Below are positions 6,101 to 9,425 of a DNA stretch of 12,896 nt, piece after piece (the stretch's first letter is position 1; each line of letters opens with the position of its first letter). Source of the DNA: a virus. Its lineage: Duplodnaviria > Heunggongvirae > Uroviricota > Caudoviricetes. The stretch spans positions 1 to 12,896 of the IMG/VR virus record IMGVR_UViG_2700989170_000001; one strand, given 5' to 3'. The notes beneath the pieces are model-generated. The model did not search any database and had not been told where the DNA came from. It saw only the letters and a program-made list of their open reading frames with translations. A program made the translations under genes and the position numbers.

Positions 6101-6177
6101 GTGGATTGATCCAGTAATGACCTCAGAATTCCATCTGGATTTGTTCAGAACGCTCGGTTGCCTCCGGGCGTTTTTTA
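6101..6177 (+). ncRNA. oop: OOP-like antisense RNA with t0-type intrinsic terminator
   Basis: The plus strand has a 7-bp stem CGCUCGG/CCGGGCG (6151-6157 and 6164-6170, one G-U pair) followed by TTTTTTATT. The sequence from 6101 (GTGGATTGATCCAGTAATGACCTCAGAATTCCATCTGGATTTGTTCAGAACGCTCGGTTGCCTCCGGGCGTTTTTTATT) closely matches lambda oop/t0 as I recall it. It is antisense to the 3' end of cII. Confidence 0.6.
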
Positions 6178-6419
6178 TTGGTGAGTCCATCAAGCGCATA
6201 CTTAAAAGCCCTGCTAATCGGACTGATGTCTGATGCCATTCCGAAAGCACACAAGACCGAAGCAATAAATCTCCAGTCCGTTCTGCTTATCTTCGATTCA
6301 TGACAGCCAATCATCTTTGCCAGACCGCGCTGGGTAAGCGTTGACAGGTTGATGAGTAAATCTGTTTCTGCGCGATCAACGTCGCGCTGTGATAGTTTGC
6401 TGTAACTTGTTTGTTCCAT
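6123..6419 (-). CDS. cII: Transcriptional activator CII (98 aa)
   Basis: The C-terminus LTNKKRPEATERSEQIQMEF and the HTH region KMIGCHESKISR resemble lambda CII. It sits between cro and the replication genes. Confidence 0.85.
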   Translation of the reverse strand: MEQTSYSKLSQRDVDRAETDLLINLSTLTQRGLAKMIGCHESKISRTDWRFIASVLCAFGMASDISPISRAFKYALDGLTNKKRPEATERSEQIQMEF

Positions 6420-6770: not shown

Positions 6771-6849
6771 ATAATACGATATGTACTTTTGGAATGCAAA
6801 CAAAAAATACATCTTGTGCATGGATGGTTTTAGTACAGAGCGTAATAAT
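6771..6849. promoter_or_regulatory. Right operator/promoter region (OR with PR; PRM not located)
   Basis: PR candidate on the minus strand: -35 TTGCAT (plus 6794-6799), 17-bp spacer, -10 TATTAT (plus 6771-6776). Operator-like sites are TACGATATGTACTTT (6775-6789) and TTTAGTACAGAGCGTA (6829-6844), sharing the AGTACA-N3-CGTA core also seen in OL. Confidence 0.5.
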
Positions 6850-6861
6850 AAGGATATGAAG

Positions 6862-7515
6862 ATGAAATGGTATGAACTGGCTAGATCCAGAATGAAAGAA
6901 CTCGGCATAACTCAAGAGAAGTTAGCTGAAGAGCTTGGTATGACGCAGGGTGGAATTGGTCACTGGTTGCGCGGATCTCGTCATCCATCTCTTGACGAGA
7001 TTGGTGTGGTGTTTAAATACCTTGGTATTGATAACGTCTCATTCAACCACGACGGTACATTTTCACCTGTTGGCGAATACTCATCTGCCCCCGTTAAAAA
7101 ACAATATGAGTACCCTGTTTTTTCTCATGTTCAGGCCGGGATGTTCTCGCCTGAGCTTAGAACCTTTACCAAAGGTGATGCGGAGAGATGGGTCAGCACA
7201 ACCAAAAAAGCCAGTGATTGTGCGTTTTGGCTTGAAGTTGAAGGTAATTCCATGACCGCACCAACAGGATCCAAGCCAAGCTTTCCTGACGGGATGTTAA
7301 TTCTCGTTGACCCTGAGCAGGCTGTTGAGCCAGGTGATTTCTGCATAGCCAGACTTGGTGGTGACGAGTTTACCTTCAAGAAACTGATCAGGGATAGCGG
7401 TCAGGTGTTCCTACAACCACTAAACCCGCAATATCCAATGATCCCATGCAATGATAGCTGTTCCGTAGTAGGGAAAGTTATCGCCAGCCAGTGGCCTGAA
7501 GAGACATTTAGTTAA
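6862..7515 (+). CDS. cI: CI-type prophage repressor (N-terminal HTH, C-terminal S24/LexA-like autopeptidase), about 217 aa
   Basis: The HTH is [23 protein letters not shown]. There is an Ala-Gly site (VQAGMF), a GNSMTAP serine motif and a downstream FKKL lysine motif. The ATG at 6862 has AAGGA 7 nt upstream (6856 is an alternative). The ORF-track start at 6781 would lie inside the operator region. Confidence 0.85.
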
Positions 7516-7868: not shown

Positions 7869-8177
7869 ATGACGGTAATCGTGTACGGGAAATCAACATT
7901 TGCAGGAAATGCCAAAACTCGCCGTCATGAGCGGCGCAGAAAGCTGGCTATCGAGCGTGATGCTATATGCAACATCATCGATTCGATCTTCGGCACAGAC
8001 AGTGAGGAACCTGTTCAGGAAGCCCCGAGAAAACGTTTAATCCTTTCTGAAAAAGCAATATCACTCGGCAACATTCGTAACCAAAATACCGACGAATGCA
8101 GTGGAAGTATTTGCCTGCCAAACGTAGCTCTTTACGCGGCAGGCTACCGGAAATCAAAACAACTGACAGCCAGGTAA
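7869..8177 (+). CDS. N: Antitermination protein N (P22 gp24-like, arginine-rich motif), 102 aa
   Basis: The N-terminus MTVIVYGKSTFAGNAKTRRHERRRKLAIER carries the arginine-rich RNA-binding motif and resembles P22 N as I recall it. The ATG at 7869 has GAGGA upstream. The ORF-track start at 7785 would overlap nutL. Confidence 0.8.
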   Translation: MTVIVYGKSTFAGNAKTRRHERRRKLAIERDAICNIIDSIFGTDSEEPVQEAPRKRLILSEKAISLGNIRNQNTDECSGSICLPNVALYAAGYRKSKQLTAR

Positions 8178-8180
8178 GTG

Positions 8181-8405
8181 ATGAATCAGACATACATTCC
8201 ATCATGCTTGAGAAATCTGCCAAAGCAGAAAGCAAAGCCCCGCAAGCAAGCCATAAAGGACGCTAAGGCAGAGGTTATTGATCAAGCAATACAATTGCTC
8301 AGGGAGGAGTTAAGAAGTGGCAAGCTCGAAGGAATGATGATGCCTTATCAGCGCGGATATCTATCGGCTATTAGTAAGTTGGAAGTATTGAAGAGTGAAT
8401 TATGA
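8181..8405 (+). CDS. Hypothetical protein (74 aa) immediately downstream of N
   Basis: AGGT lies 5 nt upstream of the ATG at 8181. The ORF is charged and lysine-rich, runs in the direction of the PL operon, and I recognise no family. Confidence 0.5.
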   Translation: MNQTYIPSCLRNLPKQKAKPRKQAIKDAKAEVIDQAIQLLREELRSGKLEGMMMPYQRGYLSAISKLEVLKSEL

Positions 8406-8467
8406 ACTATCTGGAATTTCCGGATGGTTCATTGTTTTGGCAGCAAACCACTTATTTGAGGTGAGAT

Positions 8468-8554
8468 ATGGAAGAAGAATTTGAAGAGTTCGAAGAGCAT
8501 CCTCAGGATGTGATGGAACAATACCAGGACTATCCTTATGACTACGACTATTGA
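8468..8554 (+). CDS. Candidate small acidic peptide (28 aa: MEEEFEEFEEHPQDVMEQYQDYPYDYDY)
   Basis: A strong SD GAGGTGA lies 3-4 nt upstream of the ATG. The upstream 20-aa ORF (8402-8464) overlaps the orf74 stop by ATGA and ends inside this SD. It is too small to call with confidence. Confidence 0.3.
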   Translation: MEEEFEEFEEHPQDVMEQYQDYPYDYDY

Positions 8555-8771
8555 TAAGAATCAATGGAGTGGACAATACGAACGACGGCAATGATTGCCA
8601 GAGAACTTGGTAAACAGAACAACAAAGCTGCCTGATAGTGGCCTTTATTTTTGGCATAAATAACAGAATAAACACTGCACTGTGTATTCATTCCAACGAG
8701 TGAATACACGGAGCAATGTCGCTCGTAACTAAACAGGAGCCGACTTGTTCTGATTATTGGAAATCTTCTTT

Positions 8772-8795
8772 GCCCTCCAGTGTGAGGGCTTTTTT
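8772..8795 (+). terminator. Intrinsic terminator upstream of the cIII-like gene (tL-type)
   Basis: A perfect 6-bp stem GCCCTC/GAGGGC (8772-8777 and 8784-8789) with a 6-nt loop is followed by TTTTTAT. Confidence 0.55.
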
Positions 8796-8861
8796 ATATG
8801 CATACCAATAACGCTTCATTCGAGGCGTTTTCGTTATGCAATCAAACAGAAGGAGCATCCT

Positions 8862-9032
8862 ATGCAACAGTTCGCTATTGCAGGGGCGGCATCGGTTCGC
8901 CCTTTCAACCCAATTTTATCGGTACAGCATTCACGAAAAAATATTTTAACCGGAGCAGACTTTAAACAACCAAGAATGAAAAGTTTGCTCGAAAAGCTTT
9001 GGGATATTTTGAAACAACAAGGCCGTCCATGA
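8862..9032 (+). CDS. CIII-like protein (putative FtsH inhibitor), 56 aa
   Basis: The N-terminus MQQFAIAG and the segment SLLEKLWDILKQQG resemble lambda CIII as I recall it (MQYAIAG...ESLLERITRKLRDGWKRLIDILNQPG). AAGGAG lies 6 nt upstream of the ATG. The ORF-track TTG start at 8757 would run through the terminator. Confidence 0.5.
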   Translation: MQQFAIAGAASVRPFNPILSVQHSRKNILTGADFKQPRMKSLLEKLWDILKQQGRP

Positions 9033-9136
9033 GTTTTACAGATAACTGGTCAGACGAAGAATTCATTCGTCAGATGAACAAAATGCTCAATCAGCACAAA
9101 GAACAGGAGAAAGATGATGATTCTGACTCTGAATGA
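9029..9136 (+). CDS. Candidate small ORF (35 aa) overlapping the cIII-like stop (kil-like position)
   Basis: Its ATG overlaps the cIII-like TGA (ATGA). The product is MSFTDNWSDEEFIRQMNKMLNQHKEQEKDDDSDSE. Its 3' end overlaps the start of the next ORF in another frame. Confidence 0.3.
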   Translation: MSFTDNWSDEEFIRQMNKMLNQHKEQEKDDDSDSE

Positions 9137-9425
9137 TAAGCGTGAAATATCGCAAATCATCGCAAGTTTTACCGATGATGATTACGAACGAATCAACAGT
9201 GAAGTTGATCGCCTCTGCAAACGTTGCGACCCAATAAGCGAAATGCTTCGCTCATATAAACCAGATGAACACACTAAGGACGCTATCGACTGGCTGGAAG
9301 ATGATGACTGTAACTATCAGGAAAAAGCCGCTGAATGGTTCTGGGATGCAATAACCGAAAGAGTTAAGGCTGAATATGCCTTCGCAATATTCAAACGCAG
9401 ACACATTTTTGGAGAAGCTGCATGA
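9114..9425 (+). CDS. Hypothetical acidic protein (103 aa) immediately upstream of the recombinase
   Basis: AGGAGAAAG lies upstream of the ATG, and its stop overlaps the RecT ATG (ATGA). By position it corresponds to lambda gam or P22 abc, but I see no sequence similarity to support that. Confidence 0.6.
   Translation: MMILTLNDKREISQIIASFTDDDYERINSEVDRLCKRCDPISEMLRSYKPDEHTKDAIDWLEDDDCNYQEKAAEWFWDAITERVKAEYAFAIFKRRHIFGEAA

Follow-up and report, generated by a model that had tools for sequence, protein, structure and literature searches.

The phage restriction-alleviation protein Ral, expressed by itself in a heterologous screen, inhibits type I restriction-modification (R-M) (PMC12373910), and it acts via HsdM's N-terminal domain (PMC12707154). 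The start of lambda ral is overlapped by a 28-codon open reading frame (ORF), orf28, which is described as hypothetical and non-essential (PMC10695390). This ORF is already known, having stood in the lambda record for decades; AAA96576.1 corresponds to UniProt Q38269_LAMBD, an entry with the odd name "Ral(Restriction alleviation66)". Its function, its linkage to the Ral and Lar families and the family-wide selection on it appear undescribed in the literature searched, in which we found no paper on the function of orf28 or on its conservation with Ral or Lar. Here, we compare the lambda arrangement with that in IMG/VR record IMGVR_UViG_2700989170_000001 (Caudoviricetes), of which the whole stretch of 12,896 nucleotides (nt) is called the window below, and we ask what the peptide encoded by orf28 may do.

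The lambda orf28 gene in a lambdoid prophage

Profile searches identify the window as immunity and early-left DNA of a lambdoid prophage. The initial annotation described a cluster of four coupled small ORFs directly after the antitermination gene N, and the ORF listing reproduces all four (74, 20, 28 and 23 amino acids [aa]) at 8181-8405, 8402-8464, 8468-8554 and 8564-8635. It was also right in suggesting that this spot houses restriction-alleviation functions: the 23-aa ORF is the C terminus of Ral, and the acidic 28-aa peptide is the ORF preceding ral in lambda. Its statement that none of the products could be recognized has to be revised, since the 28-aa peptide equals lambda orf28 (NP_040623) and the 23-aa ORF matches positions 45-66 of Pfam Ral. 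The features at the center of this work are as follows.

8468..8554, + strand: orf28, a 28-aa acidic, Tyr-rich micropeptide (MEEEFEEFEEHPQDVMEQYQDYPYDYDY), equal to lambda orf28 (lambdap47); phrog_16060, 7.1e-19, positions 1-28 of 28
8538..8635, + strand: ral pseudogene, its ATG (8538) lying 17 nt inside orf28; alignment with lambda and phi296/mEp506
8564..8635, + strand: 23-aa ORF, Ral residues 45-66 behind a fortuitous ATG, a remnant; Pfam Ral, 8.3e-10 (positions 45-66 of 66), and phrog_1055

The peptide MEEEFEEFEEHPQDVMEQYQDYPYDYDY is 100% identical to the translation of lambda NC_001416 34271..34357 (NP_040623). Its Shine-Dalgarno (SD) sequence (GAGGTGAGAT-ATG, 8458-8470), in which GAGGTGA ends 4 nt 5' of the ATG, is kept in all variants, and the distance from the ral ATG at 8538 to the orf28 stop codon (8552-8554) gives the same 17-nt overlap as in lambda (ral 34087..34287). 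Peptide, SD sequence, ral overlap and position in the pL operon are thus the same in lambda and the window, and the DNA is nearly identical from ~8440 to 8700, save for a 103-nt gap within ral. The surroundings differ. In lambda, sieB lies ahead of orf28 on the opposite strand and an intact ral comes after it; in the window, its upstream neighbors are the 74-aa gene, a hairpin and a linker from the N 3' end, and the deleted ral comes after it. The DNA of orf28 occurs in 118 phage records, in each case at 90% identity or more, and in 883 of 5426 complete Escherichia coli genomes (~16%). The peptide had no match in Pfam, NCBIfam, PADLOC or PDB sequences. Plasmid matches (tblastn, E = 0.4) were judged to be chance; the low-complexity filter made this search miss lambda itself.

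Selection on orf28 in diverged ral loci

Because the close relatives of orf28 are too similar to show selection, we anchored the sampling on Ral, independently of the peptide, which gave ten loci (lambda, P22, BTP1, UPF_BP1, Providencia, Kluyvera, Erwinia, Pantoea, Proteus and Cronobacter). Every one of the ten has a 22-28-codon ORF with an SD sequence that overlaps the ral start, by 11 to 23 nt. None of the diverged copies had been annotated by gene callers, and five diverged variants searched in a collection of 15 billion proteins returned nothing (0 of 5). Over the 21 codons outside the ral overlap, the three codon positions have 4/4/19 variable sites; lengths differ by whole codons (indels in multiples of three); and the ratio of nonsynonymous to synonymous differences (pN/pS) is 0-0.34 for orf28 versus 0.08-0.44 for ral in the same pairs. 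These comparisons indicate that purifying selection acts on orf28 as strongly as on ral. The initial annotation had named frame conservation with synonymous-biased substitution in advance as the test of real genes, and the 28-aa and 74-aa ORFs both passed it. In lambda, studied better than any other phage, a gene of 28 codons is under as much constraint as ral, and it is nearly never called in diverged relatives.

Loss of ral and persistence of orf28

In the window, ral has a 103-nt internal deletion between TGG(A/G)CAAT direct repeats, with the junction within 8567-8577 and the frame shifted. Codons 1-10 are kept at 8538-8567, the Cys-rich middle (residues ~11-44) has been lost, and the parts on either side are no longer in the same frame; read from its ATG at 8538, ral translates as MTTTIDKNQWSGQYERRQ*. 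The 23-aa ORF contains no full-length ~66-aa Ral (PF11058) in one frame, and the Ral Cys cluster W-C-x5-C-x2-C-x5-C falls inside the deletion. On this alignment, the 23-aa ORF is a pseudogene remnant and not a Ral protein. The Prokaryotic Genome Annotation Pipeline (PGAP) labels the copy in E. coli C3728 "antirestriction Ral family protein, frameshifted", and the 23-aa stump has been deposited as "Ral family protein" on 143 contigs. The deletion junction reads AGTGGACAAT in the window, TGTGGGCAAT in phage ECP1 and E. coli C3728, and TGTGGACAAT in locus L036; given three junction sequences (window 8567-8577; L001, L004 and L036), the deletion is either recurrent or old. The allele is present in at least 45 complete E. 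coli genomes, a lower bound since intact ral matches part of the query. A recurrent 103-nt deletion of ral that leaves orf28 intact amounts to a natural separation-of-function allele.

Several other ral alleles came to light. In Kluyvera (L034 / L118), a frameshift disrupts ral near codon 48 and leaves intact the acidic ORF upstream of it (23 aa from a GTG start). In phage ECP1 (L001 2219-2467), a gene matching phrog_14587, "anti-restriction protein", directly follows the deleted ral. In Salmonella phage ST-87 (L009) and in proteins P0042, P0046 and P0052, deletions of one base or of 13 bases join Orf28 in frame to Ral; the P0042 fusion (MEEEFEEFEEH.QDVMEQYQTIRMTTT...) has 76 member sequences. 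Such fusions may represent either a genuine allele or an assembly error that recurs. The 1-nt-deletion fusions of ST-87 and P0042 raised the possibility of a programmed +1 frameshift from orf28 into ral, which we rejected for want of a slippery site and of re-pairing at UAU-UGA. Contigs that are short or 48 kb long, from Nocardioides, Paenibacillus, Shewanella, Pseudomonas, Bradyrhizobium and others (L012-L027, L030, L032, L033 and L035), also carry a 100%-identical Ral; these contigs are almost certainly lambda DNA contamination of assemblies.

Scans of IMG/VR with degenerate DNA patterns, blind to the neighboring genes, yielded 40 loci with non-lambda variants of orf28. In 22 of these, ral is immediately downstream; in 10, a Lar-family gene is immediately upstream; the remaining 8 have neither, and a terminator follows the ORF. 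An apparent upstream Lar at L136 was an artifact of the N 3'-end linker read in another frame, and this locus is counted as ral only. The first type of Lar (9 loci; Pfam Lar 30.4 bits, cutoff 28.6; phrog_599, 5.9e-11) overlaps the peptide's GTG start with its 3' end, and the peptide gene is followed by a terminator with compensatory stem changes and by no ral. A search anchored on Lar recovered the same 9 loci, with the peptide intact in all. Variable sites in this lineage are 0/3/13, and L151 and L156 differ by 8 synonymous changes and 1 nonsynonymous change. The second type, found in L176 and Klebsiella phage XY3, is Rac-like (Pfam 45.8 bits) and shares 55% identity with K-12 RalR; an ATGA couples it to a 56-aa protein bearing the peptide motif at its C terminus, and in a Brenneria phage the motif is the C-terminal tail of an 81-aa protein (...EHPADDMSQYQDYE). 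Stand-alone forms arose by ral deletion, since the last codons of ral and its terminator remain. Altogether, orf28 has outlived ral in several independent losses and remains whole in no fewer than four types of loss: the 103-nt deletion, near-complete deletions, the Kluyvera frameshift and the Lar context. The comparisons indicate that orf28 is selected both with and without ral, and that it is linked to two unrelated restriction-alleviation families, as a free peptide or as a tail. That it travels with both families offers an inexpensive, testable hypothesis on the action of Ral and Lar and on escape from type I restriction.

The annotated N terminus of the type 1 Lar (VSQLKRHRNGE) corresponds to the 3' end of the N gene (GYRNSKDIVTAR) read in another frame (L123 4424-4500, L136, and L142 ~1100-1136); therefore, the N 3'-end linker also bounds the Lar module. 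The true start of this Lar is probably further downstream.

A possible function for the Orf28 peptide

We tentatively propose that Orf28 is a trans-acting acidic docking or mimic peptide of a restriction-alleviation module, while recognizing that this function is somewhat more apt to be wrong than right. In this proposal, orf28 would give rise to a free, very acidic peptide with the core EF-[DE]-E-H-P-x-D-[DV]-M-x-Q-Y-Q-D-Y-P-Y, which would act in trans as a short docking or mimic motif. It would most likely bind a component of the type I R-M system, or a host factor that limits or senses the action of Ral or Lar. The peptide would complement Ral or Lar, whose core activity would not require it; since Ral is active alone, Orf28 would be an accessory rather than a subunit. 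Because it would act in trans, orf28 could remain useful, and selected, in prophages with a dead ral. The initial annotation speculated that an acidic peptide could mimic nucleic acid or bind a basic host protein, which may or may not be the case here; its linkage to Ral and Lar renders a part in anti-restriction plausible. The combined statement, that the locus has the mosaic anatomy described below and encodes a trans-acting restriction-alleviation micropeptide, seems to us slightly on the probable side. A broader version is that the HP-x-D-[DE]-M-x-Q-Y-Q-D-Y peptide is a portable anti-defense micropeptide, free at 22-28 aa or as a C-terminal tail, that docks on a type I R-M subunit or on a host sensor of anti-restriction proteins and cooperates with both Ral and Lar; this we regard as speculative and rather unlikely. 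If true, restriction alleviation in lambda would be a two-component function overlooked for 40 years because gene callers skip orf28.

Several points weigh against a function of this kind. Translation of orf28 is predicted from its sequence, and searches of Pfam, NCBIfam, PADLOC and PDB found no target. An AlphaFold2 (AF2) model of the natural Orf28-Ral fusion P0052 has a mean predicted local distance difference test score (pLDDT) of 62 overall and below 50 for the peptide part, with no confident docking. In lambda, orf28 was non-essential by CRISPR interference (CRISPRi), in a host without type I restriction (PMC10695390). The linkage to Ral and Lar is guilt by association, and the association is partly historical, because some of the ral-less contexts derive from ral deletions. 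The lar/ralR of the K-12 Rac prophage has no adjoining peptide, and 8 of the 40 IMG/VR loci have no Ral or Lar within about 400 nt.

A different way to account for the linkage is that Orf28 has no host target of its own and serves Ral and Lar, both small, basic zinc-ribbon proteins, exclusively, as a neutralizer, chaperone or antitoxin that keeps them inactive or non-toxic until needed. The peptide gene adjoins or overlaps Ral and two types of Lar; in K-12, Lar goes by the annotation of a toxin, RalR, whose antitoxin is an RNA; natural Orf28-Ral fusions exist in assemblies (P0042, with 76 members, and P0052); and the motif is fused to a Cys-rich domain in XY3 and L176. However, a dedicated partner sits poorly with the ORF being intact, with a good SD sequence, in 8 of 40 loci without a nearby Ral or Lar, and in the window, where Ral is destroyed. 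Ral by itself is also active and tolerated (PMC12373910), and the AF2 fusion model has no confident intramolecular docking. We consider this explanation improbable.

The overlap with ral invites another explanation, in which orf28 works only in cis, as a leader, and the peptide itself plays no part: ribosomes ending orf28 would re-initiate at the ral ATG 17 nt inside it. The acidic start MEEEFEEFEE-HP would cause intrinsic ribosome destabilization, rescued by EttA, other ABCF proteins or Mg2+, so that translation of ral is gated by host physiology. Early acidic residues with a proline are a documented EttA-dependent or destabilizing signature, and translational coupling between aceB and aceA passes an EttA-type effect to the downstream gene (PMC11282234; bioRxiv 10.1101/2021.02.02.429294). 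By the criteria set out for MgtL-like sequences, an early Asp/Glu run plus proline (PMC11282234), the Orf28 N terminus qualifies, as residues 2-10 hold 7 Glu, followed by H11 and P12. The 11-23-nt overlap in every Ral-anchored locus fits, as does a conserved AGGA in the Gln-Asp codons, 8 nt 5' of the ral ATG. An MgtL-like leader should only control the downstream cistron, and this is where orf28 departs: there are selected copies followed only by a terminator, and in the window ral is dead while orf28 is unchanged. In the Lar-linked lineage only a terminator follows the ORF, yet the synonymous changes outnumber the nonsynonymous by 8 to 1; stand-alone copies with a terminator occur in several lineages; and the motif is also the C-terminal tail of the 56-aa and 81-aa proteins. 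Moreover, the EF.EHP.D.M residues, distant from the ribosome binding site of ral, are invariant while third codon positions vary. Thus, the leader explanation is attractive for the ral-linked form, and it fails for the terminator-followed and tail forms; as an account of orf28 in general, we find it quite improbable.

Finally, the initial annotation allowed that 8181-8640 might be a noncoding leader if the frames proved not to be conserved, with accidental ORFs and a conservation that reflects recent common descent; most E. coli and Salmonella copies are indeed at least 90% identical in DNA, so that close relatives alone cannot show selection, and two of the four ORFs are indeed no genes, but we dismiss this as very improbable, since diverged copies (ral 46-72% identity) keep the frame, start, SD sequence and amino acids of orf28 with synonymous sites near saturation, the 74-aa protein retains its length and 22 invariant residues at identities as low as 58%, and the codon-position bias and the Ral-anchored and Lar-linked loci contradict it. 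The trans-acting docking or mimic peptide remains our preferred, tentative reading of orf28.

A mosaic joint between N and cIII

Upstream of orf28, the region is made up of a conserved gene, a hairpin and a linker.

8181..8405 (75 aa from the GTG at 8178), + strand: 74-aa gene, a small conserved phage protein; phrog_5305, 4.6e-38, positions 1-71 of 71
8402..8442, + strand: predicted 14-bp RNA hairpin (8402-8432) followed by UUGUUUUGG, terminator-like; terminator scan and folding
8402..8464, + strand: 20-aa ORF, no gene but the hairpin and module linker read in frame; comparison with L148 and HK544
8443..8467, + strand: linker, the final codons of a lambda-type N (GSKPLI*) plus the orf28 SD sequence GAGGTGA, the recombination joint between the 74-aa module and the orf28-ral module; alignments with HK544, BTP1, L036, L145 and L141 (N ends there)

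The 74-aa protein has homologs in 41 clusters at 58-100% identity, nearly all of 74 aa and all "hypothetical", from Escherichia, Enterobacter, Citrobacter, Leclercia and Shigella. Its place in PHROG 5305 is borne out by 22 invariant columns among 22 sequences at 58-97% identity to the window protein. The homologs are always in the pL operon, close to N, and one is beside Gad1; in an Enterobacter prophage (L148 2307-3225), Gad1, an anti-defense gene in the same slot, is two genes past the 74-aa gene. Searches of Pfam, NCBIfam, PADLOC and PDB sequences found nothing for this protein. Its AF2 model (pLDDT 85) is a helical hairpin (helices 21-45 and 54-73) with a basic N-terminal tail, for which Foldseek found only generic helical hairpins in PDB and BFVD (E > 0.7) and no significant fold. 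As judged by its conservation, the 74-aa ORF is a genuine conserved gene of unassigned function.

Directly after the 74-aa gene, the predicted hairpin at 8402-8442 has the stable stem-loop and U-rich tract of an intrinsic terminator; its folding energy of -21 kcal/mol (z = -5.45) was equaled by none of 200 shuffled sequences. RNA searches of the region gave no Rfam match. The hairpin (8402-8432) sequesters both the ATG of the 20-aa ORF and the stop codon of the 74-aa gene. L146 (Citrobacter), L148 (Enterobacter) and L150 (metagenomic; 58% protein identity) all keep it 3' of the 74-aa gene, and in L146 and L150 it is present without an ATG or ORF there. The palindromic hairpin, with a core resembling TCCGGAAATTCCGGA, follows the 74-aa gene at 8402-8442 in the window, 1715-1745 in L146, 1722-1752 in L148 and ~626-655 in L150. 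Candidate roles for this conserved hairpin are those of a tL1-type terminator, a site of RNA processing or an inverted repeat bound by protein.

The 20-aa ORF spans this hairpin and the linker. Its ATG overlaps the TGA of the 74-aa gene (ATGA), and its own TGA lies within GAGGTGA. The window equals L148 as far as TTTTGGCAGCAA and HK544 starting at GGCAGCAAACCAC; from GGCAGCAAACCAC on, it matches the 3' codons of the N gene (GSKPLI*) that lie directly 5' of orf28 in HK544, BTP1 and others, so that the last codons of the 20-aa ORF are the N 3' end in another frame. The exact 20-aa peptide was absent from the 15-billion protein collection, and its frame is not conserved independently of the constraints from the hairpin and the N 3' end. 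On these alignments, the 20-aa ORF is a hairpin plus module linker, not a gene. We also considered whether it could be the 5' stump of an 83-aa gene in Enterobacter, and rejected this, as the common part (the first 15 residues) is the hairpin; the true start of that "83-aa" gene in L148 is an internal ATG behind GAGGTGA (phrog_1603, positions 1-51 of 54). The 20-aa ORF is in frame with orf28, and only the TGA inside the SD sequence separates them. In phage mEp506 (L003 1785-1937), a change of this TGA to TGG fuses the two into an annotated 50-aa protein, and proteins of 50-51 aa like the mEp506 fusion fall in the same 90% cluster.

The rest of the region is that of a lambdoid phage.

6123-6416, - strand: cII
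6781-7512, + strand: cI repressor
7869..8177, + strand: N, antitermination gene of 102 aa counted from the ATG, with which the pL operon begins in this orientation; Pfam N_peptide, 7.3e-40, and phrog_271, 3.6e-39
8627..8650, + strand: weak terminator-like hairpin across the ral stop, also in lambda; terminator scan and lambda alignment
8682..8709, + strand: perfect 12-bp hairpin, GTGTATTCATTC-CAAC-GAGTGAATACAC, 3' of ral, identical in lambda; lambda alignment
8772..8797, + strand: intrinsic-terminator-like site 5' of cIII, GCCCTC..GAGGGC followed by T6; terminator scan
8862..9032, + strand: cIII; phrog_550, 1e-22

To the left of cII and cI are an O-like and a DnaB-like gene, and to the right are RecT and a Mu-Gam-like gene. 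The stop codon of cIII is ATGA-coupled to a 35-aa acidic ORF (MSFTDNWSDEEFIRQMNKMLNQHKEQEKDDDSDSE, 9029-9136; phrog_17766, 5e-16), which in turn overlaps the ATG of the gene that follows. A 103-aa acidic protein (9114-9425; phrog_3486, function unassigned) is encoded directly 5' of RecT; a similar protein occurs in a Lar-linked IMG/VR phage (L123 6188-6499).

We are confident that this gene order is a mosaic joint, composed of N, the 74-aa gene with its 3' hairpin, the N 3'-end-derived linker, orf28, a ral with a 103-nt deletion, and cIII, and, as part of that anatomy, that the 74-aa ORF and orf28 are the only genes among the four small ORFs. Chance ORFs are common at such lengths, and conservation beyond chance supports only these two. 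Since the 20-aa ORF reads as hairpin plus linker and the 23-aa ORF as a pseudogene stump, there is no cluster of four coupled genes; of that part of the initial annotation, the 74-aa and 28-aa ORFs are real, whereas the 20-aa ORF is an artifact and the 23-aa ORF a remnant. What appeared to be four mystery ORFs becomes an ordinary lambdoid mosaic joint with one known hypothetical gene, one PHROG of unassigned function and two remnants.

Comparison with known systems

With the Ral of lambda and P22 (PF11058), the window shares residues 45-66 and codons 1-10, whereas the Cys-rich middle is gone. Among anti-restriction products, T4 Stp is a 26-aa peptide that acts on a type I enzyme, and T7 Ocr and ArdA are DNA mimics. 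Orf28 has no sequence relative among the solved structures in PDB nor in the PADLOC, Pfam and NCBIfam models. By analogy, Orf28 may be likened to Stp, Ocr and ArdA as a small, non-essential phage product from an early-expressed position in an anti-restriction locus, extremely acidic like the mimics and peptide-sized like Stp; however, at 28 aa it is too short for a folded DNA mimic of the Ocr or ArdA kind.

Orf28 also resembles MgtL and EttA-dependent N termini, having an acidic run and a proline within 12 codons and, in its ral-linked form, being coupled to a downstream gene. Unlike MgtL-type leaders, it shows amino-acid conservation along the whole peptide and persists without a downstream gene. 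The tail of SSB (DDDIPF) is an acidic C-terminal docking tail that depends on its terminal Phe. In contrast, the ends of Orf28 vary (DYDY, YED, YEN, YDH and YDF), and its conserved part is internal (HP.D.M.QYQDY). What Orf28 would have in common with the SSB tail is a short motif of acidic and aromatic residues, found either on its own or at the C-terminal end of unrelated proteins, which is how docking motifs behave.

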